This document shows, in pieces, positions 834-17,352 of a stretch of DNA of 64,000 bases. The stretch is from the NCBI GenBank assembly GCA_963719495.1, contig CAVRCI010000002.1:160001-224000 (forward strand), written 5' to 3'. Numbering within the stretch: the first letter of the stretch is position 1; the number at the start of each line of letters is the position of its first letter. The stretch is from an uncultured Verrucomicrobiae bacterium. GTDB taxonomy: Bacteria > Verrucomicrobiota > Verrucomicrobiia > Chthoniobacterales > JAATET01. The notes beneath the pieces are model-generated. The model was given only the letters and a program-made list of their open reading frames with translations. It did no database searches and was not told the DNA's origin. The position numbers and the translations under genes were made by a program.

Positions 834-956
834 CGTCAAGCTCAGCCACCCTGAGCGGGGCAACGAACGTCTAGGCAAGGTGTTTGCCGGAAGGGGATCG
901 GTCGGCCAAGGCTTGCCTCAGGCCGGCTAGGGGTTGGCTGCAGCGCCTTGTTCGTC
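828..956 (-). repeat. attC site (class B, specific to family X)
   Basis: Same ends as class A with a different central arm, 129 bp. Confidence 0.95.
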
Positions 957-1298
957 GGAAGAGGTGACTGCACAATGGAGGACCCGATCGTCCGACAGGC
1001 CGACGATGGTCAAACCCAGCAAGCGGCTTCGTTAGAGCATTCAGTAGAAGAGGCTTCTGTGGTCCAGATTGACTACGCATTATAAATATATTGCTCGTGA
1101 CAAGAGCAGGCCGGAACGGATTCTGGATGGATCTACTCATGCCGCGTGAGCGCCCCAAGCGTGCATGGCAGGCGAATAATCGTTGGCGTCGAATCGGGAG
1201 TGATCAATAGAAAACCAGAATCGTGCTCAATCGTATGCCGAAGGGAATCGAACAACTCTGAACCTTCCCTTGATCTCAACCCCAATAAATCAGGCGAA
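834..1298 (-). other. Cassette 27, family X gene-less cassette (465 bp)
   Basis: One of 7 colinear copies. Confidence 0.9.
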
Positions 1299-1421
1299 CG
1301 TCAAGCTCAGCCACCCTGAGCGGAGCAACGAACGTCCAGGCAAGGTGTTTGCTGGAGGGGGATCGGTCGGCCAAGGCTTGCCTCAGGCCGGCTAGGGGTT
1401 GGCTGCAGCGCCTTGTTCGTC
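1293..1421 (-). repeat. attC site (class B)
   Basis: Conserved attC ends, 129 bp. Confidence 0.95.
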
Positions 1422-1763
1422 GGAAACGGTGACTGCACAATGGAGGACCAGAGCGTCCGACAGGCTGAGGATGATCAAATCCAGCAAACGGCTTCGTTAG
1501 AGCATTCAGTAGAAGATGCTTCTGAGGTCCAGATTGACTCCGCATTATAAATATATTGCTCGTGATAGGAGCAGGCCGGAACGGAATTTGGATGGATCTA
1601 CTCATGCCGCGTGAGCGCCCCAAGCGTGCATGGCAGGCGAATAATTCTTTGCGTCGAATCGGGAGTGATCAATGGAAAACCAGAATCGTGCTCAATCGTA
1701 TGCCGAAGTGAATCGAGCAAATCTGAAATTTTCCTTGATCTAAACCCCAATATATCAGGCGAA
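1299..1763 (-). other. Cassette 26, family X gene-less cassette (465 bp)
   Basis: One of 7 colinear copies. Confidence 0.9.
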
Positions 1764-1884
1764 CGTCAAGCTCAGCCACCCTGAGCGGGTAGCCGAGCCG
1801 ACCCTGAGGTGAGCTGCCGGTAGCGGGACCGAGCAACCCCAGCCAGCGAAGCGGCTAGGGGTTGGCTGCAGCGCCTTGTTCGGC
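1758..1884 (-). repeat. attC site (class A)
   Basis: Conserved attC ends. Confidence 0.95.
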
Positions 1885-1910
1885 TGTATTGTATTGTATT
1901 GTATTGTATT

Positions 1911-2177
1911 TTATTTATTTAGAGATCCGAATGACCAGTGAGTTGTAATTGATCCATCTTCCTGCGTTCGGGTCGACGACGTGCCATACCCGAAAGGATA
2001 ATTGTATCCGCCAAACAGTATGAATGAAATGAGCAGGATTTTAACTGTGGTCCAGTAGGATATTCGCTTCCAGCCGAACAGATCCGGAAAGGTGCTATTC
2101 CACAGGAGTTTTAGTAACAGGCATGCGAGTAGAAAGAATAAAGCAATGACTGGCAGGACGAATAAAAGGGGATTCAT
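1911..2177 (-). CDS. Cassette 25: small membrane protein (88 aa, two TM-like segments) with a ~180-bp leader
   Basis: Two hydrophobic stretches; ORF ends just before the attC. Confidence 0.7.
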   Translation of the reverse strand: MNPLLFVLPVIALFFLLACLLLKLLWNSTFPDLFGWKRISYWTTVKILLISFILFGGYNYPFGYGTSSTRTQEDGSITTHWSFGSLNK

Positions 2178-2356
2178 TATCTTGATTTTCTATCGTGGTC
2201 AGTCGTACGTTGCGAGGATATGCGAGTTATAGTGACCGAGTCCAAGAACAGTGTGCGAACAGCAAAGGGTATGCCGCTAACAAAACATTTTATTCCTAAG
2301 TTTTTCGGATCTCGAACGTCTCAAGGCTTCTTAAACCTCCGAAGCCATTTACATGA

Positions 2357-2485
2357 GCCGAACGTCAAGCTCAGCCACCCTGAGCGGGGCAACGAACGTC
2401 TAGGAAAGGTGTTTGCGGGAAGGGGATCGGTCGGCCAAGGCTTGCCTCAGGCCGGCTAGGGGTTGGCTGCAGCGCCTTGTTCGTC
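2357..2485 (-). repeat. attC site (class B)
   Basis: Conserved attC ends. Confidence 0.95.
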
Positions 2486-2827
2486 GGAAACGGTGACTGC
2501 ACAATGGAGGACCCGATCGTCCGACAGGTCGACGATGGTCAAACCCAGCAAGCGGCTTCGTTAGAGCATTCAGTAGAAGAAACTTCCGAGGTCCAGATTG
2601 ACTCCGCATTATTAATATATTGCTCACGACAGGAGCCGGGCGTAACGGATTTTGGATTGATCTACTCTTGCCGCGTGAGCGCCCCATGAGTACATGGCAG
2701 GGGAATAACCGTTGGCGTCGAATCGGGAAAGATCAATGGAAAACCAGAATCGTGCTCAATCGTATGCCGAAGGGAATCGAGCAACCCTGAACTTGCCCTT
2801 GATCTCAACTTCAATAAATCAGGCGAA
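2363..2827 (-). other. Cassette 24, family X gene-less cassette (465 bp)
   Basis: One of 7 colinear copies. Confidence 0.9.
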
Positions 2828-2948
2828 CGTCAAGCTCAGCCACCCTGAGCGGGCGATCAAGCCAACCCTGAGGTGAGCTGCCAATAGCGGGACCGAGCAA
2901 CCCCAGCCAGCGAAGCGGCTAGGGGTTGGCTGCAGCGCCTTGTTAGCC
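2822..2948 (-). repeat. attC site (class A)
   Basis: Conserved attC ends. Confidence 0.95.
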
Positions 2949-3482
2949 CTCATTTGATATTTTCATGTATTGAAACATTGGATACCCCGCCCATCCGTTG
3001 GGGAGAACAATCACTCTTGCATGAACGGGTTGCTCTGGTGAATCGGATTGCGAAGGAGCGTAGGTGTGAATGATATGGACATAATAAGAATATTTTCCTC
3101 TTGGTTTGTCTTTGTTCGTGGTTGAGGTGGAAGATATACGTTCAATTGAGACAAGCTCTGTCGATAGGAGCTTATTCTTACTTTTGCTCGAACTTGGTAG
3201 GTTATCTCCGTGGAAAGATTCTGCGCGGTTATAGGCATCTTTGAACGTAAAACCATATGCAGAGGGATCGTCCAAATCTACTGGCTCGATCGAGTCCCAT
3301 AGCTTCTTCGGGGCTATGAATGTCATGAAGACCTTCTCCGAACGTATAACTTCTTCTTTGGTGGATAAGACCGTATCCCCGCCTTGTGGGATAAACGGGA
3401 TGCAATAGCGCTCCTCTGCAGAACGTGTAATGTGCGCGGTGGAAAGAAGTAGTGCAGCGAGTAGGATTGGATGTGTATTCAT
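2943..3482 (-). CDS. Cassette 23: secreted hypothetical protein (179 aa)
   Basis: Signal-peptide-like start MNTHPILLAALLLSTAH; stop TAA lies within R''. Confidence 0.8.
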   Translation of the reverse strand: MNTHPILLAALLLSTAHITRSAEERYCIPFIPQGGDTVLSTKEEVIRSEKVFMTFIAPKKLWDSIEPVDLDDPSAYGFTFKDAYNRAESFHGDNLPSSSKSKNKLLSTELVSIERISSTSTTNKDKPRGKYSYYVHIIHTYAPSQSDSPEQPVHARVIVLPNGWAGYPMFQYMKISNEG

Positions 3483-3491
3483 GTGATTATG

Positions 3492-3618
3492 GGCTAACGT
3501 CAAGCTCAGCCACCCTGAGCGGGTAATCAAGCCAACCCCCGGGTGAGCTGCCAATAGCGGGACCGAGCAACCCCGGCCAGCGAAGCGGCTAGGGGTTGGC
3601 TGCAGCGCCTTGTTAGCC
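3492..3618 (-). repeat. attC site (class A)
   Basis: Conserved attC ends. Confidence 0.95.
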
Positions 3619-4098
3619 CTGTATTTTTTCAGGTTCTACAAGTTCAATCGTAGCGTTATTCCGTAGGGTTTCGATAAACTGATCAAGAGTAGGTTGAGTG
3701 GCATCCTTCCTATTCTCTGTTTTGATGGCTTGACGGAGTGCTTGGACCGCCAATTTGTCGGTTTCGACCTGCGTGAAGGAATTCATTGTATAACCTTGGT
3801 CAGCGAGGGATTTATCGAACGCTTCCTGATCTCCCTTGAATTCTTCGTTGAGGATCGTAGTTGTCCGGTCGTTTATCAGTGTGTCAGGAATCGTGTATTT
3901 ACGCCTTTGAAATTCCAGTAATATCAATTTACGATGGATGGCATCGTTACGAAATGTTTCAAAGTCAGGTTTTGATAAGTCATCGATGGATACCATGACT
4001 GGGCTTTTGTCGACGTATGCGCAAACGACCTGCTCTGCAGCCGATGTGATAGCAACTTGAGTCAATAGGAGTAGTGTTGTGACGATGTTTGTTTTCAT
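3613..4098 (-). CDS. Cassette 22: secreted SurA N-terminal-domain-like protein lacking a PPIase domain
   Basis: Signal peptide; RKLILLEF...GDQEAFDKSLADQGYTMNSF and C-terminal LDQFIETLRNNATIE resemble SurA/PrsA chaperone helices. Confidence 0.7.
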   Translation of the reverse strand: MKTNIVTTLLLLTQVAITSAAEQVVCAYVDKSPVMVSIDDLSKPDFETFRNDAIHRKLILLEFQRRKYTIPDTLINDRTTTILNEEFKGDQEAFDKSLADQGYTMNSFTQVETDKLAVQALRQAIKTENRKDATQPTLDQFIETLRNNATIELVEPEKIQG

Positions 4099-4109
4099 AG
4101 AATTTTATG

Positions 4110-4238
4110 GGCTAACGTCAAGCTCAGCCACCCTGAGCGGGGAAACGAGCGTCTAGGAAAGGTGTTTGCTGGAGGGGGATCGGTCGGCCAAGGCTTGCCG
4201 TAGGCCGGCTAGGGGTTGGCTGCAGCGCCTTGTTCGTC
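4110..4238 (-). repeat. attC site (class B)
   Basis: Conserved attC ends. Confidence 0.95.
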
Positions 4239-4580
4239 GGAAACGGTGACTGCACAATGGAGGACCTGAGCGTCCGACAGGCTGACGATGATCAAATCCA
4301 GCAAGCGGCTTCGTTAGAGCATTCAGTCGAAGAGGCTTCTGTGGTCCAGATTGACTACGCATTATAAATATATTGCTCGTGACACGAGAAGGGCGGAACG
4401 GATTCTGGATTGATCTACTCTAGCCGCGTGAGCGCCCCAAGCGTGCAGGGCGGGCGAATAACCGTTGGCGTCGAATCGGGAGTGATCAATAGAAAACCAG
4501 AATCGTGCTCAATCGTATGCCGAAGGGAATCGAACAACTCTGAACCTTCCCTTGATCTCAACCCCAATAAATCAGGCGAA
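4116..4580 (-). other. Cassette 21, family X gene-less cassette (465 bp)
   Basis: One of 7 colinear copies. Confidence 0.9.
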
Positions 4581-4701
4581 CGTCAAGCTCAGCCACCCTG
4601 AGCGGGCAACCGAGCCAACCCCCAGGTGAGCTGCCAATGGCGGGAACGAGCAACCCCAGCCAGCGAAGCGGCTAGGGGTTGGCTGCAGCGCCTTGTTCGG
4701 A
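4575..4701 (-). repeat. attC site (class A)
   Basis: Conserved attC ends. Confidence 0.95.
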
Positions 4702-4975
4702 TCCGCCCGTCCGTGGTCCCGTTGGATCTGCTATCTACAGCCTTGCTCATTGTCTAGCCGACTGATGATCGAACCATGCCAACGAGTGATACTGATGCTG
4801 GTCGATAGCGAAATACGCAACGAATGAGCTGGGTAAAATACCTTGGTTTGGGCATTCGGATACTCAAAGCAACCTCATTGTGAACACCTTCCGAATACGC
4901 CAATTTTATACAAAGCAAACTACGAACGAGTTTGTTTGCAATTCGGGCGTCCGGCGACTGGGGCATAGGTCCGAA
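4581..4975 (-). other. Cassette 20, family Y (395 bp; ORF frameshifted relative to the other copies)
   Basis: Homologous to the other Y copies but 1 bp shorter. Confidence 0.85.
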
Positions 4976-5096
4976 CGTCAAGCTCAGCCACCCTGAGCGG
5001 GCAATCGAGCCAACCCCCAGGTGAGCTGCCGATAGAGGGACCGAGCAACCCCAGCCAGCGAAGCGGCTAGGGGTTGGCTGCAGCGCCTTGTTAGGC
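4970..5096 (-). repeat. attC site (class A)
   Basis: Conserved attC ends. Confidence 0.95.
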
Positions 5097-5097
5097 G

Positions 5098-5604
5098 TCA
5101 CAGCTTCTTTAGTCTAGCAGCATACGATGAAGGAAGCAGTGGCTTATGCCTTGAGGCGAGACTGCTGATCATGAAGGCGTAGTCCGAGCTAAACTCCATG
5201 TAACGCATGACCAAGGCAATGTTCTCTCTTCGTTTGACTTCGCTATTGTTGACTGAAGCAAACCACGGAGAATTCGGAATGGGTCCAGAATGATTTGATT
5301 GTCCTGTAGATTCTATTTCTTCACCGGATTTCGCAAAATAGGTGCGAATCGTGCCTCTGATCTTTGAGACTGCGTTCTCGAATCCGTCGCTGTCAGCGTG
5401 AAATAAAACACTCAGTATCCCTAAATATCTCACTCCATATCTGAATGAAGTTGGAAGATTTGAGGTATCCAAAAGAATAGGTTCCACTGATCTACGTCCT
5501 CCACTAAGTCGAATTACATCTTCCGGTGTTAGAACATATTTTACGGCATGTTCGCAGACGGCAACGAACGTCTCGGCAGCGAGGGCGGGAGGCTGGTATT
5601 TCAT
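5098..5604 (-). CDS. Cassette 19: SeqA C-terminal-domain-like DNA-binding protein (168 aa)
   Basis: RYLGILSVLF..D...F..A...IRGTIRTYFA........G.......PNSPWFASVNNS...R..I..VM.YM.F aligns by eye without gaps to the recalled E. coli SeqA-C (RFMLLLSTLY..D...F..A...LHGRTRVYFA...PGTPYWVITNTN). Confidence 0.75.
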   Translation of the reverse strand: MKYQPPALAAETFVAVCEHAVKYVLTPEDVIRLSGGRRSVEPILLDTSNLPTSFRYGVRYLGILSVLFHADSDGFENAVSKIRGTIRTYFAKSGEEIESTGQSNHSGPIPNSPWFASVNNSEVKRRENIALVMRYMEFSSDYAFMISSLASRHKPLLPSSYAARLKKL

Positions 5605-5612
5605 ATTATTTC

Positions 5613-5738
5613 GCCTAACGTCAAGCTCAGCCACCCTGAACGGGCGAACTGAGGCAACTGGTGATCAACTGCCGGTAGAAGGTCCGCGCAACCCCAGGAG
5701 CGAAGCGGATAGGGGTTGGCTGCAGCGCCTTGTTCGGC
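5613..5738 (-). repeat. attC site (class C)
   Basis: 126 bp, distinct central arm. Confidence 0.95.
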
Positions 5739-6051
5739 CAACAGCGCCCAAATAACCGAAAGCTCTGCCATCCTACCATAGGTTTCGTGGTATCAAAAGT
5801 TATCATGATGGAATTGAAATGAGCTGTTGGCTCTTCGAAGATATCTCAAGTTGGCAAAAATAAATTTTTCGCTCCGCGAGTGTTTGATGCAGCGATCGTG
5901 ACAGACTGAAGCCCCGATAAGCCGGAGGAAGCATTGCTGATCGCGGGCCGTCCGCCTTGAGATCGCGGGCCGTCCGCCTTGAGATCTCGTGTAGATGGGG
6001 AGAAGGCGAGCGAGCTACCAATATATTCCTCCGCCGGAGGCTGAAGCCGAA
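5619..6051 (-). other. Cassette 18, family Z gene-less cassette (433 bp, with a 22-bp tandem duplication at 5939-5982)
   Basis: Homologous to 6691-7102; no conserved ORF. Confidence 0.85.
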
Positions 6052-6172
6052 CGTCAAGCTCAGCCACCCTGAGCGGGCAATCAAGCCAACCCTGAGGTGA
6101 GCTGCCGATAGCGGGACCGAGCAACCCCAGCCAGCGAAGCGGCTAGGGGTTGGCTGCAGCGCCTTGTTCGGC
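6046..6172 (-). repeat. attC site (class A)
   Basis: Conserved attC ends. Confidence 0.95.
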
Positions 6173-6182
6173 TGTATTTGTA

Positions 6183-6470
6183 TCAGAGTAACCGCGCACT
6201 ATGCCAGAATCGAGAAATGAGCACTGCCCGGCGTTGGTGATCTACGCGATAAATGATCCGGTAGGCTCCGTAAACGAGTTGCCGAGTTCTGCCATCATCG
6301 AACTCGGGAACAAGATTGCCCCTATCCGGCAGAATGCAGAGTGAAAGGGCCTCATCAATGAGTTGGTTTCCGAATCTTTCAGCGGCTCTCGGATCGTCAA
6401 AGGAAATATACCGGGCAATCTGACCAAGATCGCGGATTGCCCGTGGCGAGATTAAGACCTTGAAATCCAC
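6183..6470 (-). CDS. Cassette 17: RelE/ParE-family toxin
   Basis: ISPRAIRDL..I..YI..D.P.AA...P..G..VPE...R.L..G.YRIIYRV...I....H.AR pattern. Confidence 0.92.
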   Translation of the reverse strand: MDFKVLISPRAIRDLGQIARYISFDDPRAAERFGNQLIDEALSLCILPDRGNLVPEFDDGRTRQLVYGAYRIIYRVDHQRRAVLISRFWHSARLL

Positions 6471-6640
6471 GAGGGAATCATCTGGCGAACGTCCTCAGCG
6501 GGAATACCTTCTCCTCTCTCTAACTCATCGAATCCCTCTCGGACTCCAGCAATGAAGTCAATTTCGCGGGCAATGTCGGCCAGCGAAACCTCGGTTGGAA
6601 GACGCTGAATCAGATCGATTGCGATGTCTTGGCTGCTCAT
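6452..6640 (-). CDS. Cassette 17: cognate antitoxin (62 aa)
   Basis: Small acidic ORF overlapping the toxin start; LIQRLP...VREG..E.E.G.GIP pattern. Confidence 0.85.
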   Translation of the reverse strand: MSSQDIAIDLIQRLPTEVSLADIAREIDFIAGVREGFDELERGEGIPAEDVRQMIPSWISRS

Positions 6641-6646
6641 GCGATC

Positions 6647-6674
6647 AAGATGGACGGTGAAACAGATTTTGCAA
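6647..6674 (-). promoter_or_regulatory. Putative sigma70 promoter of the TA cassette (leaderless)
   Basis: TTGCAA-N16-CATCTT-N6-ATG. Confidence 0.55.
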
Positions 6675-6684
6675 GACAATCAGA

Positions 6685-6810
6685 GCCGAACGTCAAGCTC
6701 AGCCACCCTGAACGGGCGATCTGAGGCTGCTGGTGATCAACTGCCGGTAGAAGGTCCGCGCAACCCCAGGAGCGAAGCGGATAGGGGTTGGCTGCAGCGC
6801 CTTGTTCGGC
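6685..6810 (-). repeat. attC site (class C)
   Basis: Conserved attC ends. Confidence 0.95.
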
Positions 6811-7102
6811 CAAAACCGCCCAAACAACCGAAACGTCAGCCAGCCTGCCATAACTTTCATAGTATCAAGAGCATTCATGATAGAATCGAAATGAGCTGAT
6901 TGCTCTTCGGTGATATCTCAAGTTGGCAAAAAATAAATTTTTCGCTCCGCGAGAGGTTGATGCAGCGATCGTGACAGACTGAAGCCCCGATAAGCCGGAA
7001 GAAGCATTGCTGATCGCGGGCCGTCTGCCTTGAGATCTCGTGTAGATGGGGAGAAGGCGACCGAGCTACCAACATATTCCTCCGCCGGAGGCTGAAGCCG
7101 AA
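6691..7102 (-). other. Cassette 16, family Z gene-less cassette (412 bp)
   Basis: Homologous to 5619-6051. Confidence 0.85.
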
Positions 7103-7222
7103 CGTCAAGCTCAGCCACCCTGAACGGGCGAACTGAGGCTACTGGTGATCAACTGCCGGTAGAAGGTCCGCGCAACCCCAGGAGCGAAGCGGATAGGGGT
7201 TGGCTGCAGCGCCTTGTTCGGT
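7097..7222 (-). repeat. attC site (class C)
   Basis: Conserved attC ends. Confidence 0.95.
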
Positions 7223-7227
7223 CTGTA

Positions 7228-7644
7228 TTATCGTGATTGCTCTTTGATGGTTTCAAGCAGCTTCGTATAGGGTGTCCAGATGACCTCTAAACTGGTTGGA
7301 TCGGAGGGAACCACGAAGAATGCATAGCCGACGTGAAGCTCTTCGTGAATAACCGCAACTTTGAGCTCTGGATTTTTAATTGAGCTATACCAAGTGACAA
7401 TACGAACACCTGATTCCTTTTGAGTTGGAAGAATGAAATTGTTGCCTTTTGGAGCTTCTGTAACTGCAAAGCCATTGCTGAGCAAAGCTGACTTGAACTT
7501 GCTTTCAGACTGTGTCGCGTCAGAAGTGGAATTGCTGGTCTGCCCCCAACTGAATGACGCGGAATCTACAATGGGAAGCTTCTTATCTGCGGCGTGGCAG
7601 ACTGAAACTGTGAGCATAACTAAAGATGCGATTTGGATTTTCAT
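7228..7644 (-). CDS. Cassette 15: secreted hypothetical protein (138 aa)
   Basis: Signal peptide MKIQIASLVMLTVSVCHA; ORF fills the cassette. Confidence 0.8.
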   Translation of the reverse strand: MKIQIASLVMLTVSVCHAADKKLPIVDSASFSWGQTSNSTSDATQSESKFKSALLSNGFAVTEAPKGNNFILPTQKESGVRIVTWYSSIKNPELKVAVIHEELHVGYAFFVVPSDPTSLEVIWTPYTKLLETIKEQSR

Positions 7645-7654
7645 AAATTTAATG

Positions 7655-7781
7655 ACCGAACGTCAAGCTCAGCCACCCTGAGCGGGCGACCAAGCCAACC
7701 CCACGGTGAGCTGCAGGTAGCGGGACCGAGCAACCCCAGCCAGCGAAGCGGCTAGGGGTTGGCTGCAGCGCCTTGTTAGGA
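7655..7781 (-). repeat. attC site (class A)
   Basis: Conserved attC ends. Confidence 0.95.
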
Positions 7782-7830
7782 CTGTATTTCCACGTTTCCC
7801 GTTCATTGGAAAGTGCATTGGAACAGTCAC

Positions 7831-8256
7831 TTATTTGAAGTTGTCTGGATTTTGAACATGGTCGATGGCTACCCCCTTCTTTTTGGAGCTTCTCTTTGAA
7901 TAAGTGCAGATGCAAATTAGAAAAGATGCTACGCATGCCGCTTTCAGAATAAGCAGCAAGATCGGCTGAAACCAAGCTCTCGTAAATACCTCGATAAAAT
8001 CTGATAGTCCGAATAAAGCAAATGAGATCGTGCATGCCATCAATATGTCCTGATCTCCCCGACTCTTTTTGCGGTTATTGAGAAATGCAAAGGCGATCGC
8101 CAGCCAGAATACTCCTTCGATGAGATTGAATATCTGGTCTAATTCAAGTCGGGGTATTCGAATAGCGATAAATCCAAGAATCATTGAAGCGATTGCGACT
8201 CCCCATATTCCGAATTCCAAAAATGCGGTAGGGAATGCAGTGTATTGCTTCTTCAT
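7831..8256 (-). CDS. Cassette 14: membrane protein, about 4 TM segments (141 aa)
   Basis: Four hydrophobic segments; FN.IEG.FW and FGLSDFIE motifs; ATG immediately after R'. Confidence 0.8.
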   Translation of the reverse strand: MKKQYTAFPTAFLEFGIWGVAIASMILGFIAIRIPRLELDQIFNLIEGVFWLAIAFAFLNNRKKSRGDQDILMACTISFALFGLSDFIEVFTRAWFQPILLLILKAACVASFLICICTYSKRSSKKKGVAIDHVQNPDNFK

Positions 8257-8259
8257 GAG

Positions 8260-8386
8260 TCCTAACGTCAAGCTCAGCCACCCTGAACGGGTGATCGAGC
8301 CAACCCTGAGGTGAACTGCCAATAGCGTGACCGAGCAACCCCAGCCAGCGAAGCGGCTAGGGGTTGGCTGCAGCGCCTTGTTAGGT
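8260..8386 (-). repeat. attC site (class A)
   Basis: Conserved attC ends. Confidence 0.95.
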
Positions 8387-8398
8387 CTGCATCGTGTT

Positions 8399-8674
8399 TT
8401 ATACCAACGTGAATAGTTCTACCGTTCCTCCGGATTTATGAATAGGACTTTGAACCATGATACTCTTGGCAGTATCAATATCTGGAACTTCAATGGCGAT
8501 GTATCCAGTAACTGTCTCTGAAATGCATGAATCAAATCTATTGTTTTTTAGCGAGATGCCATTGTCCAGAGCAGAGCCGCCAATGATGTATCCCTTTTCA
8601 TGGAGCATCGAAAAATAGTCATCCCAGTCATTCGACTGTCCGACGCCATGGTTGATCATGATGTATTTATTCAT
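8399..8674 (-). CDS. Cassette 13: YciI-related domain protein
   Basis: GG.AL...VTGYI.IE..D.D.A......P....GG.VEL pattern. Confidence 0.75.
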   Translation of the reverse strand: MNKYIMINHGVGQSNDWDDYFSMLHEKGYIIGGSALDNGISLKNNRFDSCISETVTGYIAIEVPDIDTAKSIMVQSPIHKSGGTVELFTLV

Positions 8675-8750
8675 TTTTGGATTCGAGTCCGGTAAAACTC
8701 TATGTGTTATTTGCAAACTTGCTGTGTGTTTAAATGCATTATTTTGAATG

Positions 8751-8876
8751 ACCTAACGTCAAGCTCAGCCACCCTGAACGGGCGAGCGGAGGCAACTGGT
8801 GATCAGCTGCAGGTAGAGGGTCCGCGCAACCCCAAGAGCGAAGCGGATAGGGGTTGGCTGCAGCGCCTTGTTAGGG
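8751..8876 (-). repeat. attC site (class C)
   Basis: Conserved attC ends. Confidence 0.95.
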
Positions 8877-9185
8877 CTGTATTATGATATAGCTTCCAGG
8901 GTCCGCCGTATCCACCGCTGTGACAATCTTCGGAATGAAGGGCTTGAGAAATGGCCAGCGAATCGTGAAGAGTTCGACAATAGCGATCTTGCGGTTGGAC
9001 AAGTTTTGCTGATACCGGAGGTTCTTGTCTCCGAGGACAAAAACATCGAAGCGGGCGTCAATCAGCTTCATCAACTCACCATTTTTAACGCCGGCCCAAC
9101 CCTGATGTTGCACCGAAGTGGTGGAATGGTGATCGAGATACTTCAGTAGCGGATGAGGAACATTCTCATCAATGATGACCGTCAT
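8871..9185 (-). CDS. Cassette 12: PIN-like toxin (DUF5615/VapC45-like)
   Basis: IIDENVP...GW.G.KNG.L...FDVF...DKNLRYQQNL motifs; 4-nt overlap with the upstream DUF433 gene. Confidence 0.88.
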   Translation of the reverse strand: MTVIIDENVPHPLLKYLDHHSTTSVQHQGWAGVKNGELMKLIDARFDVFVLGDKNLRYQQNLSNRKIAIVELFTIRWPFLKPFIPKIVTAVDTADPGSYIIIQP

Positions 9186-9388
9186 GAATCTGATTGTGCC
9201 AGTCGTAGAAGCTCTTCCGCATCCACTTTTTGAACCGAGGGGAAAAAGCTGATGAAGTCATCCAGAGAGTATCCATCAGTCACGTAGTCCAAAAGCGTCT
9301 GAGCTGGAACGCGACTACCTCTGAAAACGATCGTGCCACCCAGAATTTCTGGGTCGGAGTGAACTGGACTGTGATCTAGCGAGATCAT
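9182..9388 (-). CDS. Cassette 12: DUF433 antitoxin
   Basis: DPEILGG..VFRG.RVP...L.DY...G.S.D.F...FP signature. Confidence 0.92.
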   Translation of the reverse strand: MISLDHSPVHSDPEILGGTIVFRGSRVPAQTLLDYVTDGYSLDDFISFFPSVQKVDAEELLRLAQSDS

Positions 9389-9394
9389 GGCTGG

Positions 9395-9422
9395 AAGTTA
9401 CTCTAGCTGGGCCTATCTGCAA
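9395..9422 (-). promoter_or_regulatory. Putative promoter of the DUF433/PIN cassette (leaderless)
   Basis: TTGCAG-N16-TAACTT-N6-ATG. Confidence 0.55.
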
Positions 9423-9439
9423 TCTCATATTGCCTCATG

Positions 9440-9565
9440 CCCTAACGTCAAGCTCAGTCACCCCGAACGGGCGATCTGAGACTCCTTGTGATCAACTGCC
9501 GGCAGAATGTTCGCGCAACCACAGGAGCGAAGCGGCTAGGGGTTGGCTGCAGCGCCTTGTTAGGC
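9440..9565 (-). repeat. attC site (class C, with point changes in the L' arm)
   Basis: tcagtcaccccg instead of tcagccaccctg. Confidence 0.92.
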
Positions 9566-9985
9566 CGCATTGTATGTGTGTCCTACAGTTTGAACGAGCT
9601 GTGAGAAGAGATCGCTATCATCCTGAATCATTTGTTCAGCGCTTATGAGTCTTGCGGATTTCCCGGCTCCAGTCTTCGTGAATCTGACGCAAATCTGAAA
9701 GATATGAGTAATCTGCATGGGGGTTCTAGATCGCGGCCAGCTACGCTCGTAGAAAACAAAATATGTTGCTTCTTCGTTGCGGAGCTGTCCGGTCCTCAGA
9801 TGCTCTGATTCAGTGGCGCTGATCTTGTCCGATATGTCTGTTGAATCAATTCCATCGGGGATGGATAGGAAAAAGAGCTTTCCATAAATTTCTGGGAGGA
9901 TCTCTAGCTCTGATGAATTCATCATTCCAATCGGATCTCCAACTCCGGCGATCGAATATCTCTGGGTTGCGAGAATGTATGTCAT
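9560..9985 (-). CDS. Cassette 11: hypothetical protein (141 aa)
   Basis: ORF fills the cassette; stop lies in R''. Confidence 0.7.
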   Translation of the reverse strand: MTYILATQRYSIAGVGDPIGMMNSSELEILPEIYGKLFFLSIPDGIDSTDISDKISATESEHLRTGQLRNEEATYFVFYERSWPRSRTPMQITHIFQICVRFTKTGAGKSARLISAEQMIQDDSDLFSQLVQTVGHTYNAA

Positions 9986-9994
9986 AAATTTTTG

Positions 9995-10121
9995 GCCTAA
10001 CGTCAAGCTCAGCCACCCTGAGCGGGTGACCGAGCCAATCTTGAGGTGAGCTGCCGGTAGCGGGTTCGAGTAACCCCAGCCAGCGAAGCGGCTAGGGGTT
10101 GGCTGCAGCGCCTTGTTAGGC
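9995..10121 (-). repeat. attC site (class A)
   Basis: Conserved attC ends. Confidence 0.95.
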
Positions 10122-10123
10122 CC

Positions 10124-10381
10124 TCATTTGTCAGCGGACGCGAACGCAAGGATCTTCACATGGCGATCAGCGAAGTCGATCCAGTAGTGTATCGCGAAGC
10201 CGTCAATCACTGAAACATCCAGCAGTCGACCTGTAGAATCGTTCTCGGAGAAGTCCGAATGGCTATCCGGTGATTCCCGAATTCTGTCAAAATGAGTTAG
10301 TAGTCTTAGACGCTTTCGCTTCGTCAGGGAGTCGATATCTCGAACTACTTCAAGATCCACCAGTAGCTTATATGATCTCAA
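10124..10381 (-). CDS. Cassette 10: probable RelE-like toxin (85 aa)
   Basis: Downstream member of a small two-gene pair; basic N-terminus and a C-terminal beta-rich FAIHYWID..D..VKIL. Confidence 0.65.
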   Translation of the reverse strand: MRSYKLLVDLEVVRDIDSLTKRKRLRLLTHFDRIRESPDSHSDFSENDSTGRLLDVSVIDGFAIHYWIDFADRHVKILAFASADK

Positions 10382-10383
10382 CT

Positions 10384-10578
10384 CTAGTTCTGATAGCGCT
10401 TCTTCAAGTCATCGAGCTCAATCCAATTGTTCGAGTCCCCGTCGTCAATCTTGTCCGACATACGTTGCTTGAATGTGCCGTCTCTGTTCGCTTGGATTGA
10501 TACGATGTATGCGACTAATTGGCGCTGCTCGCCCACCTCAAGATGTGCGATTTCGTCTTTGAGTTGGTTGAAGGACAT
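10384..10578 (-). CDS. Cassette 10: probable antitoxin (64 aa)
   Basis: Small ORF upstream of the toxin; C-terminal WIELDDLKK is typical of addiction-module antidotes. Confidence 0.65.
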   Translation of the reverse strand: MSFNQLKDEIAHLEVGEQRQLVAYIVSIQANRDGTFKQRMSDKIDDGDSNNWIELDDLKKRYQN

Positions 10579-10583
10579 CCCTT

Positions 10584-10612
10584 ACAGTGATTTTGGAAAT
10601 CTCGCGTGTCAA
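10584..10612 (-). promoter_or_regulatory. Putative promoter of cassette 10 (leaderless)
   Basis: TTGACA-N17-CACTGT-N5-ATG. Confidence 0.55.
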
Positions 10613-10623
10613 GCTCGTATATG

Positions 10624-10749
10624 GCCTAACGTCAAGCTCAGCCACCCTGAGCGGGCGTTTGTGTTCGACCGATGTCCGGCTGGAAGTTGTGGGTCCGCGC
10701 AACCCAAGCCGCGAAGCGGCTAGGGGTTGGCTGCAGCGCCTTGTTGGGC
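10624..10749 (-). repeat. attC site (class D, unique central arm)
   Basis: Conserved ends, 126 bp. Confidence 0.93.
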
Positions 10750-11080
10750 TAGCAACCGCCCAAAACTACTGAAGGCGATCTTATCTCGTTGCCAACCCCT
10801 TCGTATCAATACCGAAGGCTTTTGAATTGTAAGCGATCCTATTTGAACGTTGGCATCGAATTCGGAATCACCCATGTGCGTGTGCAATTGTTGTGGGCAG
10901 ATGACGCTGATCTCAACATCACATTTTTCATCCATCGGAGATTATTGCTTGTTGCCGAGTGAGAATATGACCGGATCAAAAGTTGTCGCCGATGAAGTAT
11001 CAAATATTACTCGTCCGAGCATCAGACGGTTGCGGAATGCTGCGGCATCCGGAAGTCTGACTTGTATTTTCAGGATTCAT
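10750..11080 (-). pseudogene. Cassette 9: degraded ORF
   Basis: The ATG at 11080 is out of frame with the longer frame ILKIQVRL...GNKQ*SPMDEK..., which itself contains an internal TAA. Confidence 0.5.
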
Positions 11081-11083
11081 CGA

Positions 11084-11210
11084 GCCCAACGTCAAGCTCA
11101 GCCACCCTGAGCGGGCAATCAAGCCAACCCTGAGGTGAGCTGCCAGTAGAGGGAACGAGCAACCCCAGCCAGCGAAGCGGCTAGGGGTTGGCTGCAGCGC
11201 CTTGTTAGCC
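11084..11210 (-). repeat. attC site (class A)
   Basis: Conserved attC ends. Confidence 0.95.
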
Positions 11211-11215
11211 TGAAT

Positions 11216-11743
11216 TCAATTTCTTCGCATATGTTTAGAGGCAGACCCAAGAACTTCTGAGATATCTCCCAAAGCTTTGGTGGTGATGTCATAGACCACT
11301 GTTTTGGATGTTCGACTTTCGAATACGGCCGCCTCATGGCAACCGAAGCATATTAGAAGTGAGTATCCAGCACTTTCAGCATTCCATATGATCATATAGT
11401 CCGCGTGAAATCAGCCGCAGCTTTTCGGGCCACTGTATGGCCTCAGAGCTATAGCATTCGTCAAAATCCTATTTAATTGTTCCGTCCCTTTTTTGTCGAC
11501 CTGAACTGGCTTGCTGTAGAAGTAGAAATCAAGAGACGTAAACAAGAGCTCCTCAGATAAATCTCTTTTGTATTGAGCCCTGTGTTTCCGTGGGTTTGGT
11601 AAACCTTCGAACACCTTGATTGAGTCTGCAGAAGAAATGAATTCCTGAAACCAAATCCGATTGGTTTCAGAGAAAATTGCGTCTTCGCTATAGGAAACGC
11701 AAATGGTTCCGGCGAGTGCGATGATGGTGAGCAACTTTCTCAT
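11216..11743 (-). pseudogene. Cassette 8: secreted protein interrupted by an in-frame TGA at 11411-11413
   Basis: ...PKSCG*FHADYMIIW...ICFGCHE...; the frame stays open for 64 more codons to the cassette end. Confidence 0.8.
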
Positions 11744-11744
11744 A

Positions 11745-11873
11745 GGCTAACGTCAAGCTCAGCCACCCTGAGCGGGGCTACGAACGTCTAGGCAAGGTGT
11801 TTGCCGGAAGGGGATCGGTCGGCCAAGGCTTGCCTCTGGTCGGCTAGGGGTTGGCTGCAGCGCCTTGTTCGTC
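11745..11873 (-). repeat. attC site (class B)
   Basis: Conserved attC ends. Confidence 0.95.
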
Positions 11874-12215
11874 GGAAACGGTGACTGCACAATGGAGGAC
11901 CAGAGCGTCCGACAGGCCGACGATGGTCAAATCCAGCAAGCGGCTTCGTTAGAGCATTCAGTAGAAGAGGCTTCTGTGGTCCAGATTGACTTCGCATTAT
12001 AAATATATTGCTCGTGACACGAGAAGGGCGGAACGGATTCTGGATGGATCTACTCAGGCCGCGTGAGCGCCCCAAGCGTGCATGGCAGGCGAATAATTCT
12101 TGGGGCCGAATCGGGAGTGATCAATGAAAAACCAGAATCGTGCTCAATCGTATGCCGAAGGGAATCGAGCAACTCTGAACTTTCCCTTGATCTTAACTCC
12201 AATAAATCAGGCGAA
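11751..12215 (-). other. Cassette 7, family X gene-less cassette (465 bp)
   Basis: One of 7 colinear copies. Confidence 0.9.
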
Positions 12216-12335
12216 CGTCAAGCTCAGCCACCCTGAGCGGGCAATCAAGCCAACCCTGAGGTGAGCTGCCAATAGCGGGTCCGCGCAACCCCCGCCGCGA
12301 AGCGGCTAGGGGTTGGCTGCAGCGCCTTGTTCGAC
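12210..12335 (-). repeat. attC site (class A/D hybrid)
   Basis: One half A-like, the other D-like. Confidence 0.93.
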
Positions 12336-12829
12336 GCGCATTTGTTCAAACTACGCATATCGTGACTTCCTCAAGCCAACCCCTCCGTATTTCTACCGAA
12401 GGCACTCCAATAATGAAGATCAAACCTTCGAAGAGGCTTCGCGATTGGAATCACTGAAATGCGATTGGAAGATTGTAGAGAGTAGAGCCTGAATTGGAGC
12501 GGGGGACTTGGGATCGAGCTCACAAATATCCGCCTGGAAGATTGTATAGGGGTAGAGGCTGTAGTTGAATAGAAAGGGGGTATCAAGCTCACAAATAGAA
12601 GCTTGGAACGATTGTTGGGACATCTGGTGACTTCCGAACGATTGGTCGAAAATCAAAATATTCTACCCGTTGAGAAACTGTGTTGGTCGCCTAGGCCCCG
12701 ATCCTCCGTCCTACGCTGGTCGAAAAAATAGAACCCGACCGCTTGAAACAAGACGTGGTGTCCCCTGACGGCGTCCGAATATGTGAGAGCGAAATATAGT
12801 CATCCGCCGGAGGCTCACAATGAGTCGAA
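12216..12829 (-). other. Cassette 6 (W): 614 bp, no convincing gene, internal 69-bp repeats
   Basis: TGGAA(C)GATTG recurs at 12466, 12535 and 12604; 5' motif shared with family Z. Confidence 0.7.
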
Positions 12830-12950
12830 CGTCAAGCTCAGCCACCCTGAGCGGGCGACCAAGCCAACCCTGAGGTGAGCTGCCGGTAGCGGGACCGAGC
12901 AACCCCAGCCAGCGAAGCGGCTAGGGGTTGGCTGCAGCGCCTCGTTCGGT
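12824..12950 (-). repeat. attC site (class A)
   Basis: Conserved attC ends. Confidence 0.95.
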
Positions 12951-13492
12951 CTGTATTTCCCACACCCGTTTAGTGATCCGAAGCATGTCTTCATGTATCT
13001 CTACATCATTCTTTATGAATGCGTTGGGAATGTGGTGCGAAAACGACATACCGATCTTTTGGAGGATTTTCCTGCTGGAATGATTCCATACTGCGTGTGT
13101 TGCAGAAATTTCGGTGGCGTGGAGAACACGGAATCCGAATGATAGAATGCACCTGCATGCTTCAGTCATATATCCTCGGTTTTGAAATAATGGATGGGTC
13201 CAGAATCCTATGTCCCAGATATCTGAGTTCGGAGAGCAACTCGTCCGATGCGCTTTCCGTTGTCGAGATCACATATGGTAAATACGAAAGCAGTTCCTAA
13301 GTCCCATGCAATCTTGTTATTTTGGAAGGGTTTTAATAGCTCGTCCATCGAATCAGGCGGATCCCTGCGCATCCCATCGCAAAAATTTGGATGACGACTA
13401 GCAGAAAATACAAATTGAATATCTTCTCTTGTGAACTTCCGCAGAACTAAGCGATCGGTTAGCAAGATTGTGTCCGATGGAATTATTTTCAT
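12921..13492 (-). pseudogene. Cassette 5: RimJ/RimL-type GNAT acetyltransferase, frameshifted near 13225
   Basis: LTDRLVLRKF...IGRV.L in one frame; IWDIGFWTHP.FQNRGYMTEA...N.SS..IL.K.GM in another. Confidence 0.85.
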
Positions 13493-13495
13493 GAG

Positions 13496-13622
13496 ACCGA
13501 ACGTCAAGCTCAGCCACCCTGAGCGGGCAATCGAGCCAACCCCCGGGTGAGCTGCCGGTAACGGGTTCGAGCAACCCCAGCCAGCGAAGCGGCTAGGGGT
13601 TGGCTGCAGCGCCTTGTTCGGA
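13496..13622 (-). repeat. attC site (class A)
   Basis: Conserved attC ends. Confidence 0.95.
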
Positions 13623-13897
13623 TCCGCCCGTCCGTGGTCCCGTCGAATCTGCTATCTACAGCCTTGCTCATTGTCTAGCCGACTGATGATCGAACCATAC
13701 CAACGAGTGACACTGATGCGGGTCGATGGGGAAATACGCAACGCATGGGCTCGGTAAAAATACCCTGGTTTGGGCCTTCGGATACTCAACGCAACGTCAT
13801 TGTGAACACTTTCCGAATACGCCAATTTTATACAAAGCAAATCACGAACGATCTTTTTTGCAATTTGGGCGTCCAGAAACTGGGGCATAGGTCCGAA
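13502..13897 (-). other. Cassette 4, family Y (396 bp; doubtful 78-aa ORF at 13652-13888)
   Basis: Homologous to the other Y copies. Confidence 0.85.
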
Positions 13898-14020
13898 CGT
13901 CAAGCTCAGCCACCCTAAGCGGAGCAACGAACGTCTAGGCAAGGTGTTTGCCGGAAGGGGATCGGTCGGCCAAGGCTTGGCGCAGGCCGGCTAGGGGTTG
14001 GCTGCAGCGCCTTGTTCGTC
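13892..14020 (-). repeat. attC site (class B)
   Basis: Conserved attC ends. Confidence 0.95.
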
Positions 14021-14362
14021 GGAAACGGTGACTGCACAATGGAGGACCCGATCGTCCGACAGGCCCACGATGGTCAAACCCAGCAAGCGGCTTCGTTAGA
14101 GCATTCAGTAGAAGAGGCTTCTGTGGTCCAGATTGACTTCGCATTATGAATATATTGCTCGTGACACGAGAAGGGCGGAACGGATTCTGGATGGATCTAC
14201 TCATGCCGCGTGAGCGCCCCAAGCGTGCATGGCAGGCGAATAATTCTTGGGGTCGAATCGGGAGTGATCAATAGAAAACCAGAATCGTGCTCAACCGTAT
14301 GCCGAAGGGAATCGAACAACTCTGAACCTTCCCTTGATCTCAACCCCAATAAATCAGGCGAA
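13898..14362 (-). other. Cassette 3, family X gene-less cassette (465 bp)
   Basis: One of 7 colinear copies. Confidence 0.9.
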
Positions 14363-14483
14363 CGTCAAGCTCAGCCACCCTGAGCGGGCAGTCGAGCCAA
14401 CCCTGAGGTGAACTGCCAGTAGAGGGTCCGAGCAACCCCAGCCAGCGAAGCGGCTAGGGGTTGGCTGCAGCGCCTTGTTCGGC
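14357..14483 (-). repeat. attC site (class A)
   Basis: Conserved attC ends. Confidence 0.95.
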
Positions 14484-14484
14484 T

Positions 14485-15006
14485 TCACCGTGGTCCTTCA
14501 TACTGTAGACTCTTCCTTATACTGGAGCGAACGCCAAATTCTATATTTGTCAAAATATCATCAATCTTCCACTCGTCCTCGATTCGGTGTAGCACAAGAA
14601 TATCAGTCCAAAATCGATCAGCGAGCGGTGGCTTGCCGCTAAAGCGAACTGTTGCGTAGGCTCGATCAGTAGCGGTAATGACGACTACTACTTCGACAAA
14701 GTTTCCGCCCTCCAAGAGGTTTGTAAAGAGGGGGCCTTCGTCCGGTGGAGGTTTGAGTTCCCTATATTTTTCTGGATTCCGTAGCGCGGCTTCTGTCCAA
14801 GCGTCCACGGTATCCTGTGCCGAAGCTATCGCGGCGCAGAAGCTCGGAGTAAGTGCTTCGAGACAATGTGCAATATCCTTCTGTTCAACCGTCCCTCGGA
14901 TTTCGAGTGCTTGCTTCTCTCTATAAAAGTTGTTGATCAGTGTTTCGATATCGCTTGCTCGAGCATCAGTTGTCCAAAGCAGTAAAATAAAAAAATATGC
15001 CTTCAT
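14485..15006 (-). CDS. Cassette 2: secreted protein, DUF3828/YbjP-like
   Basis: Signal peptide MKAYFFILLLWTTDARA; C-terminal WTDILVL....EWKIDDI motif. Confidence 0.7.
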   Translation of the reverse strand: MKAYFFILLLWTTDARASDIETLINNFYREKQALEIRGTVEQKDIAHCLEALTPSFCAAIASAQDTVDAWTEAALRNPEKYRELKPPPDEGPLFTNLLEGGNFVEVVVVITATDRAYATVRFSGKPPLADRFWTDILVLHRIEDEWKIDDILTNIEFGVRSSIRKSLQYEGPR

Positions 15007-15019
15007 GTGGAAATCCAAA

Positions 15020-15148
15020 GCCGAACCTCAAGCTCAGCCACCCTGAGCGGGGCAACGAACGTCTAGGAAAGGTGTTTGCGGGAGGGGGATCGGTCGGCCA
15101 AGGCTTGCCGTAGGCCGGCTAGGGGTTGGCTGCAGCGCCTTGTTCGTC
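15020..15148 (-). repeat. attC site (class B)
   Basis: Conserved attC ends. Confidence 0.95.
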
Positions 15149-15490
15149 GAAAGAGGTGACTGCACGATGGAGGACCCGATCGTCCGACAGGCCGACGATG
15201 GTCAAACCCAGCAAGCGGCTTCGTTAGAGCATTCACTCGAAGAGGCTTCTGTGGTCCAGATTGACTACGCATTATAAATATATTGCTCGTGACAAGAGCA
15301 GGCCGCAACGCATTCTGGATGGATCTACTCATGCCGCGTGAGCGCCCCAAGCGTGCATGGCAGGCGAATAATCGTTGGCGTCGAATCGGGAATGATCAAT
15401 AGAAAACCAGAATCGTGCTCAATCGTATACCGAAGGGAATCGAGCAAATCTGAACTTTTCCTTGATCTAAACTCCAATAGATCAGGCGAA
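15026..15490 (-). other. Cassette 1, family X gene-less cassette (465 bp), first position after attI
   Basis: One of 7 colinear copies. Confidence 0.9.
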
Positions 15491-15540
15491 CAGTATATTG
15501 GATGGAATTTTGGTTTCCGAGATAGGTGGGGGTTTGTTGT
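15485..15540 (-). promoter_or_regulatory. attI recombination site (crossover G/TT at 15491/15490; upstream limit approximate)
   Basis: The first X cassette starts GTTCGCC but is preceded by ...TCCATCCAATATACT instead of the attC ...GCTGAGCTTGAC; lies 5' of intI. Confidence 0.85.
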
Positions 15541-15744
15541 TTGGGGTGAGTTGGCGGCGCGATTGCGAAAGTAGTCAAGGAGAATGAGGTAACGCGCGGC
15601 GCGACGTTCCCTACCCAATTGGTAACCAGTCGACTTTTTCGTAACCACGGCCGTGAGTTGGGGGGAGTTGGAGAATCTTCTCGTCTTGTTGGATTTGCAT
15701 GAGATAGATGGAATTATGCATATTGCAATTGTGGTGGTTTTGAA

Positions 15745-17352
15745 ATGATGGGTCTGAAGCGCGAAGAGGCTGGCGAGGGTCTTCGCCCGTTGGTTCGGTT
15801 GACGGTATTGGGTGAACTGCTTTCCGGGGAGTGGGACGACTGGATGGGTTTTGCGGTTGCTGGGTATGTCGAGGGCGTTGATTCGGTTGAGCGGGGCGGT
15901 GATGAGTTTGGCGGGGAGCGGGTTGCTGTTGCGGAGGGGGAGCGGGATCCGGGCTGGCGGGTGGCTTTTACCCGAGCGGAGGCTGATTTATGGGTCGAGG
16001 CTTTGCAGCGGCGGATCTTTCGGGATTCGGAGCGGCTTTGGGCGGGGATTTGGTTGGGGCGGTTCGTTCGGTCGATTGGGGGTCGGCGATTGGATGAGGT
16101 TCTTGCGGCTGACGTGGAGCGGTTTTTGGATCGAGCGGTGGTGGTCGGCGGGGAGGACTGGCAGATTTTGCAGGGTGACCGGGCGGTCAAAATTGCTTTG
16201 CAGGATGTGCTGTCGTTGGATTGGGCTCGGAGGTGGCCGAAGTTTGAAGTGGTCGTGCAGGCTCGGGCGACGGTCGAAGCGAGGATGGCGGGTCGATTGC
16301 CGGAGGGGGCGGGGGTGGAGGCTGCCGTTAGTAAGCTCAGGGTGTCGGGGCCGAAAGGGATGGCTCGGTTTGAGGGGCGGACGGACGATGGGGTGTTGCC
16401 GAAGCGGTATGAGGGGTTTCTGGAGGAGGTTCGGGGGGCTTTGCGGAAGCTGCATTACGCGGACCGGACGGAGGAGACTTACGTGGATTGGGTTCGGCGG
16501 TTTCTGGTGTTCACTCGACCGATTGGGCGGGATGCTTTGGCTGCGTCGGACGTGGCTTTGTTTTTGGAGTATCTGGCGGTGGTGCGGAAGGTGGGTCCGG
16601 CTACTCAGAATCAGGCTCTCAACGGGCTGGTCTTTGTTTTCCGTGAGGTGCTGGAGCGGGATTTGGGGGAGATCGGGGGGGTGGAGCGGGCGAAGCAGAA
16701 GCGGCGATTGCCGGTGGTGTTGAGCCGGGATGAGGTGCGGGTTCTCATCGAGGCGGCTCCGGAACCTTATGCGCTGATGATTCGATTGCTGTATGGGACG
16801 GGGATGCGGTTGATGGAGTGTCTGCGGCTGCGGGTGAAGGACGTGGATTTCGACCATCAGCAGATCATGGTTCGGAGTGGCAAGGGGGATAAGGATCGGG
16901 TGACGACTTTGCCGGGTTCGATGAGTGCTGATTTAGTCGAGCAGGTGGCGAGGGTGCGGGTGCTGCACGAAAAGGATCTCGCGGACGGACATGGATCGGT
17001 CTTTATGCCTCAGGCTTTGAACAGAAAGTGGCCGAAGGCGGCTCGGGAGCTGGGTTGGCAATACGTGTTTCCGGCGGGGCGGTTGAGTGTGGATGGCGCG
17101 GAGGTTCGGCGGCACCACGTGAACGAGAATTCTTTGCAGAAGGTGGTGAAGGATTCGGCGGTGCGGGCGGGTTTGAACAAGCGGGTTAGCTGTCATGCTT
17201 TGCGGCATAGCTTTGCGACGCATTTGTTGGAGTCTGGGTATGACATTCGGACGGTGCAGGAGTTGCTTGGGCACTCGGATGTGAGCACGACGATGATTTA
17301 CACTCACGTGCTCAATCGACCGGGGTTGGCGGTGCGGAGTCCTTTGGATTGA
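15745..17352 (+). CDS. intI: Integron integrase with a long N-terminal extension (start uncertain)
   Basis: HY..RTE..Y..W..RF SAM domain, TQNQAL, GMR..E, KG.KDR, IntI-specific insertion LH..DL..G.G.V..P.AL.RK.P.A...[27 protein letters not shown]. Confidence 0.98.

Follow-up and report, generated by a model that had tools for sequence, protein, structure and literature searches.

The window analyzed here, a 64,000-nucleotide stretch of an uncultured Verrucomicrobiae bacterium (contig CAVRCI010000002.1, positions 160,001 to 224,000), carries the integrase end of a large integron, and our subject is X, a gene-less 465-bp cassette family that recurs in it. The cassette array lies on the minus strand, adjoins the integrase gene intI, and extends far past the window. 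Slots are numbered from attI, and sub-feature coordinates refer to the X copy in slot 27. The genome (G000, 98.6% complete; contigs C2, C7, and C13 are named below) was compared with four congeners, G001, G002, G004, and G005. In G000, 206 cassettes were parsed, in four segments, the main array comprising 174 slots with 24 X copies. The relatives' arrays were parsed in part; in G004, for example, 195 attC sites were parsed, versus 411 attC-pattern matches. The features are as follows.

834..1298, minus strand: X copy, slot 27, reference for the sub-features
834..954, minus strand: X-type attC, 121 bp; bottom strand predicted to fold into a recombinogenic hairpin
955..1298, minus strand: noncoding X body (slot 27), 344 bp; no synonymous excess in six frames and no Rfam match
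990..1068, minus strand: 79-bp core, 78% identical to a diverged relative in G001
1197..1283, minus strand: near the start of the cassette, an imperfect hairpin on the sense strand with about 31 pairs, containing three AATCG/CGATT repeats
1299..1763, minus strand: X copy, slot 26; C2:37621, 124 kb off, holds an identical copy
2363..2827, minus strand: X copy, slot 24
4116..4580, minus strand: X copy, slot 21, with a stop within the 95-amino-acid frame
11751..12215, minus strand: X copy, slot 7
13898..14362, minus strand: X copy, slot 3
15026..15490, minus strand: X copy, slot 1, directly after attI
15489..15505, minus strand: attI end, with crossover at G|TT; the final ten bases ahead of TT are identical in all five genomes
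15745..17352, plus strand: integron integrase IntI, 535 amino acids, integrase domain at residues 225-535 (TIGR02249, 427 bits; cut-off, 265)

X is a true cassette of a sedentary chromosomal integron, with an adjacent integrase and attI and an attC that has R and L boxes and is predicted to fold on the bottom strand. It consists of a 344-bp body and a 121-bp attC of its own type, which was otherwise seen only in two copies of one 398-bp gene-less cassette. In the minimum-energy fold of the bottom strand the R box is paired in 24 of 25 X copies. We calculated the probability of attC folding (pfold) under constraints modeled on PMC5371416. In array context, the sample being every X copy plus 49 gene cassettes and 49 others of G000 (at most 16 per other group), pfold of the X attC was 0.71, versus 0.014 and 0.006 for the other G000 groups. 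In the circular form, for which all parsed cassettes with an attC of 111 to 129 bp were used, it was 0.80, which places X at the 95th percentile among 134 cassette types. Within the 7-bp core of that form, 30 of 32 X copies have one mismatch and 180 of 186 gene cassettes have none. By length, X stands at the 6th percentile of cassette types. Several other features of the locus were recorded. Ahead of its integrase domain, IntI carries about 220 additional N-terminal residues (15745-16420), most of which the congeners match. Just after intI, a G/T-rich unit of roughly 270 bp is repeated several times in tandem (17400-19150), and a short GTATT repeat run marks the 3' end of the slot-25 cassette (1883-1912). 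The distal array (C2:27000-57400) is split between a block on the minus strand and one that is inverted, at 49.8-55.4 kb.

An earlier reading of this DNA, made from its letters alone and called here the sequence-only reading, had located seven X copies of exactly 465 bp with no net length change. All seven are placed correctly, and they align without a gap over 465 columns at a mean column identity of 96%. Genome-wide, X has 31 copies among the 206 parsed cassettes, 25 of 465 bp, five of 466 bp, and one of 467 bp, so that "exactly 465" is valid within the window only. Among the 31 copies are 29 distinct alleles, 88.6 to 100% identical (mean, 93.2%). Four copies have one attC insertion in common. 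Each of the two indels in the body was seen in a single copy, one in a short run and the other in a dinucleotide repeat, and both may be errors of assembly. Short-read contigs from further DNA runs of one study carry X pieces with 3 to 6 differences, which weighs against the substitutions in X being an artifact. Parts of X are present in three DNA runs of that study, the best of which may be the source sample; among the RNA data sets, none was listed as holding X. The slot-1 X (attC 15026-15146) and an X in a small attC cluster at C7:39823 share an attC haplotype and have different bodies.

That X contains no real gene, as the sequence-only reading held, is supported. The 95-amino-acid frame runs into the attC, and in the 4116 copy a TAG six codons in leaves a 69-amino-acid remnant. 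Synonymous changes in the X body were at expectation in all six frames (P = 0.15 to 0.97), with a best z of 1.3. The same test gave z of 2.4 to 11.5 in 35 of 62 families, all of them small multi-copy families, and thus has power; the 15 largest families gave z of 1.7 or less. A coding signal was seen in multi-copy gene cassettes. The longest internal open reading frames (ORFs) of X have 50 to 70 codons, at or just above the noncoding criterion of PMC1382264 (no ORF longer than 150 bp). Three X frames were scanned against the Pfam and NCBIfam profile sets, and no match was found there.

The distribution of the copies fits the proposal that the integron amplifies and reinserts X. Ten allele pairs differ at 0 to 5 positions, and all ten lie at separate slots, none sharing both neighbors. 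Near-identical alleles far apart with different neighbors are what copy-and-paste of single cassettes predicts, and IntI-dependent excision and integration of X would fit them. Integrase activity is reported to duplicate cassettes by copy-and-paste, with semi-conservative excision (PMC8024014), and attC sites with high pfold are reported to excise more often (PMC5371416). Distance of a copy from the consensus does not increase with distance from attI (rho = 0.02). Among X site pairs, 521 of 2080 fail the four-gamete test and differences are clustered within alleles, consistent with recombination among copies or recurrent change; the body has 135 variable sites for 160 variants, versus 138.7 expected under uniform placement. 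We put about even weight on X being a passenger cassette that accumulates by repeated excision and reinsertion. X would cost the host little and would be moved by IntI more often than other cassettes, singly and by copy-and-paste recombination, its short length and its attC, predicted to fold well, probably helping. A cassette that is short, untranslated, promoterless, and easy to recombine would accumulate. The allele diversity may come from a pool shared and exchanged between strains and species, plus recombination among the copies.

The order of X in the array is random. In the main array, X stands before a promoterless sense gene five times versus 5.3 expected, forms four X-X tandems versus 3.2 expected, and showed no even spacing. 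With five genomes pooled, a gene-less cassette precedes a gene 52 times (55.5 expected) and another gene-less cassette 109 times (107.5 expected). X is indeed absent from slots 8-20, as the sequence-only reading observed, and the gap is of chance size: the largest X gap in the main array is 20 slots versus 23.8 expected, and gaps of at least 13 slots number five versus 3.1 expected. The suggested complementarity with toxin-antitoxin (TA) cassettes did not emerge, the mean distance being 7.0 versus 7.2 slots, with one borderline sub-test. An apparent avoidance of TA-like cassettes (P = 0.015) was discarded, its null having broken up TA clusters; with the TA slots fixed, P was 0.55. By Pfam, slot 17 is a TA cassette (ParE), and slot 12 is one by DUF433 and a weak PIN match.

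Among the relatives searched, homologs of X were confined to the genus. Matches were found in 2 of 60, a single copy at 94% in G004 and a diverged 501-bp relative in G001 with the same ends and the 79-bp core at 78%. Phage and plasmid collections held no X beyond one 28-nucleotide chance match. A 28-letter core pattern had no metagenome match; an attC-junction pattern found 24 metagenome loci, but neither an X body nor a full X-type attC was present at any of them. Of five genome-contig matches, one had an X body; it is a 94% match in an array of the same type. The attC pattern had no viral match. Within the 79-bp core, an apparent signal of polymorphism versus divergence (P = 0.002) was rejected, as it disappeared (P = 0.26 and 0.54) on removal of 7 of its 17 sites, those at which the G001 base segregates within X. 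By nhmmer, no homology of X to other gene-less families was found beyond the G001 relative, and the words TGTCAC and TTGAYCATC, common to families, were not convincing.

X is one of several such families in the genus. Multi-copy gene-less families account for 69 of 206 parsed cassettes in G000, 26 of 116 in G001, 68 of 153 in G002, 69 of 185 in G004, and 40 of 85 in G005. The leading gene-less family differs in each genome (31, 16, 28, 45, and 28 copies, respectively), and each is among the shortest 11% of cassette types. Four other families occur in the window with no coding signal: family Y (438-833, 4581-4975, and 13502-13897; 12 copies in G000), family Z (5619-6051 and 6691-7102; 2 copies here and 45 in G004), the leading family of G005 (one window copy, 10630-11089), and a 614-bp family (12216-12829 in the window; 7 copies). 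Some gene-less cassettes have noncanonical cores instead of G|TT with AAC. In G000 these are G|GT with GAC (9 copies of 397-398 and 506-509 bp, at C2:38019, 77758, 117011, 128374, 146898, 155602, and others); G|AT with ATC was seen in G002 (25 copies) and G004 (12 copies).

Several observations weigh against a simple passenger. X has 2 indels per 160 body substitutions, versus 124 per 2725 in sister families, and among shared variants 0 of 91 are indels, versus 42 of 970 (P about 0.02, a Poisson estimate); X has few long homopolymers, a caveat on this deficit. The length constraint claimed by the sequence-only reading finds weak support in these few indels, but a 382-bp relative exists. Variation along X is patchy in 12-nucleotide windows (P = 0.010; in 20-nucleotide windows, P = 0.13), and singletons tend to occur in the windows that also hold shared variants (rho = 0.43; P = 0.02). 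The 5' hairpin retains 97.8% of its pairs. X is scarce within 3 slots downstream of TA-like cassettes (3 versus 6.8 expected; P = 0.047 to 0.053), although this is one of 30 configurations and was not reproduced with promoter-defined marks. The present random order is compatible with a benefit at the moment of insertion and does not exclude it. Blanco et al. measured sense-strand promoter activity in most of the Vibrio gene-less cassettes that they tested, and a section heading of their paper states that such promoters are not identifiable in silico (PMC11014356). Lastly, in none of the five genomes did pfold correlate with copy number across cassette types, and a pfold of 1e-4 was calculated for the family that dominates G001, so that good folding is at most a contributing factor for X.

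A second possibility, which we hold tentatively, is that X is a structured RNA of the array transcript, its hairpin, directly behind the upstream attC, acting as a processing or stabilizing stem or as a small RNA (sRNA) source and tuning downstream read-through. The hairpin (X cassette positions 16-102) is stable as sense-strand RNA and weak as DNA. It is sense-only (alignment z of -3.5 versus 0.0 antisense), has single-copy z of -1.6 to -4.3 in all seven window copies, and is more stable than the best 81-nucleotide window of 45 other cassettes, but the whole body gave z of +0.6 on both strands. In the covariation check that the sequence-only reading had proposed, 11 of 31 pairs vary solely between standard pairs, always on one side; two-sided compensatory changes numbered 0 in 31. 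The noncoding RNA role suggested by that reading finds weak support in the hairpin. Most of the common variants keep pairing via G-U pairs, and this wobble-only variation is a weak hint of an RNA role. P values ran from 0.02 to 0.54. Weighted by frequency, broken pairs numbered 20 versus 33 expected (P = 0.02), but the unweighted count (21 versus 21.1 expected) indicated no protection, and the shared-variant and energy-based tests gave P of 0.13 and 0.28; all these pairing tests are biased, as the structure was taken from the same sequences. A covariance model run on 17 genomes matched X only and not the G001 relative, Rfam gave no match (E up to 5, window 400-18000), and X has no neighbor preference. 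A reverse transcriptase (PF00078) was not found in G000, G001, and G004 and is present in G002 and G005, a distribution that does not fit a retron or other reverse-transcribed RNA. Sister families add to the case for RNA: a long stem (z about -4) is conserved among families 4, 6, and 8, the strand-specific motif of many others recurs in the rRNA leader, and an sRNA in a Xanthomonas integron cassette is reported (10.1101/2025.06.18.660453).

The sister families merit description in their own right. Families 4, 6, 8, and 34 and two single cassettes form one gene-less superfamily (nhmmer E down to 1e-24; loci L024-L030 in G004 and L036-L040 in G002), whose conserved long stem, with an alignment z of about -4, is closed by GCTCATCG and CGATGAGC; three of its loci were scanned with no Rfam match. 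The motif of the other sister cassettes, RCCTCCGGYGGAKGA, is absent from X; many cassettes that lack a gene, or whose gene starts late, have it close to their start. All 217 of its 217 cassette-body matches in five genomes are on the cassette strand, mostly 10 to 18 nucleotides after the start; in the window it lies on the minus strand at 12800-12812, 7078-7090, and 6027-6039. The rRNA-leader copy of RCCTCCGGYGGAKGA in G000 is at C13:768313. The element stands 337 to 340 nucleotides before the 16S gene in all five rRNA leaders of the genus, which are orthologous and therefore not independent, at -320 in one family member, and in none of 19 other rRNA leaders. Twelve further matches outside the G000 rRNA operon turned out not to be rRNA leaders. 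The leader copy lies just before a boxA-like word. We regard RCCTCCGGYGGAKGA as a candidate antitermination or pause signal. A second NusG-family gene is present in four of the five genomes (in G000 at C13:409810-410091, locus L151); in G000, G002, and G004 it lies just upstream of a long secA-like gene (by translation), and G001 also has a second NusG-family match. A wider proposal seems to us rather unlikely. In it, array read-through would be governed by interchangeable cassettes acting at the RNA level, X among them, some by long sense stems (X and families 4, 6, and 8) and others by the rRNA-leader element. If it were true, each species would fill a quarter to half of its superintegron with noncoding read-through modules, and the leader-type copies would recruit an antitermination factor.

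A mobile promoter, as the sequence-only reading suggested, is unlikely: X has no host-type sigma-70 site and is not enriched before promoterless genes. Such a cassette might keep distant cassettes expressed if transcription from it began weakly at AT-rich DNA or through an alternative sigma factor. The measurements on Vibrio cited above, and those on gene-less cassettes of oral Treponema, which are also promoter active (PMC6557892), speak for it, as do the position of X in slot 1 and its scarcity just downstream of TA-like cassettes (P about 0.05). That scarcity is gone when promoter-bearing cassettes serve as the marks (P = 0.24), and mean distance does not show it either (P = 0.55); X does not avoid tandems. 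The AT-rich core, named as a conserved feature by the sequence-only reading, is present and contains TATAAT, but it is intact in only 18 of 29 alleles, and the nearest TTGTCA is 13 nucleotides from TATAAT, versus 15 to 18 in host tRNA promoters. Our promoter matrix, built from 25 of 54 tRNA and transfer-messenger RNA (tmRNA) upstream regions of G000, is a proxy that covers host-type sigma-70 and not alternative sigma factors. With it, 16 of 23 two-ORF TA-like cassettes scored at least 10.2, and single-gene cassettes had a median of 5.2. Over the whole body, 16 of the 24 X copies in the main array had a best sense-strand score of 4.8 (range, 4.2 to 8.7), the junctions scored lower than the bodies, and in five sampled copies the sense strand stood at the 9th to 16th percentile of its own shuffles. 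Three X copies had no match to sigma-54 or extended -10 patterns. Recognizable sigma-70 elements were thus not found in X by this proxy, and PMC11014356 does not require them. Terminator-like hairpins appeared in only two of the copies scanned, which is chance level. On the order, coding, and promoter tests together, the passenger reading is favored over a promoter role of the Vibrio type.

A DNA-binding platform or decoy, in which the CGATT repeats bind a host or phage protein that 31 copies would titrate, is very unlikely. The AATCG words noted earlier at 1192, 1219, 1229, and 1246 are there, with a fifth at 1178; four of the five copies are intact in 26 to 29 of 29 alleles, the fifth in 10 of 29, and one pair is spaced by 10 bp. 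The spacing is otherwise irregular (17, 10, 27, and 14), the hairpin accounts for three of the repeats, and a profile of the repeat-bearing 5' part had no nhmmer match to the G001 relative. The 10-bp pair, ACGATT-N4-ACGATT, has no exact match in the genome outside X. Of 1000 shuffles, 34 had four copies of one 5-mer within 75 nucleotides, as did 14 of 252 other cassettes, making the repeat block mildly unusual only. A microprotein, from a 50-codon frame that opens with TTG at cassette position 14, the 95-codon frame, or a 36-codon antisense frame, is scarcely credible: the 50-codon frame starts at the usual cassette-gene position and keeps its stop in 29 of 29 alleles, but its synonymous changes are fewer than expected (15 versus 22.8), those of the 95-codon frame are near expectation (26 versus 22.9), stops interrupt these frames in the G001 relative, and those scanned had no Pfam or NCBIfam match.

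Whether the many noncoding cassette copies of large integrons are selfish DNA or regulators has been a question since 2006, and this genus offers five arrays with different dominant families in which to ask it. If the passenger reading is true, copy number in an array reflects recombination properties and not usefulness. If the hairpin, or the rRNA-leader motif of the sister cassettes, is active, gene-less cassettes would have a second, elongation-level function.

The kind of cassette is already known. Paralogous noncoding cassettes were described in Vibrio in BMC Evol Biol in 2006 (PMC1382264), with 45 copies in V. vulnificus CMCP6 and 34 in YJ016, and X is likely a family of the same kind. 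Those authors name both a selfish and a beneficial reading and leave the choice open. Like that family, X is gene-less, has many paralogs per array, has homologs only in close relatives, and lacks a synonymous-site pattern; similarity over the whole length is 84 to 89% in Vibrio and 89 to 100% in X. Unlike it, X belongs to another phylum, with no sequence link expected, and relative to what that paper reports, the present analysis adds five congeners with a different dominant family in each and tests of order, promoter content, and attC folding. The promoter cassettes of Vibrionaceae (PMC11014356) and Treponema (PMC6557892) resemble X in having, as described there, no body ORF of more than 70 codons and in size (491 to 666 bp, versus 465 bp for X). 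In contrast to those cassettes, whose activity was measured, X has no host-type sigma-70 site and, at 51% G+C, is not AT-rich. The recurrent "empty" cassette and the sRNA-Xcc1/symE cassette of Xanthomonas (10.1101/2025.06.18.660453) offer two parallels with X, a noncoding cassette that is repeated in one array and RNA as a possible cargo; X differs in matching no Rfam family and in having no toxin gene linked to it.

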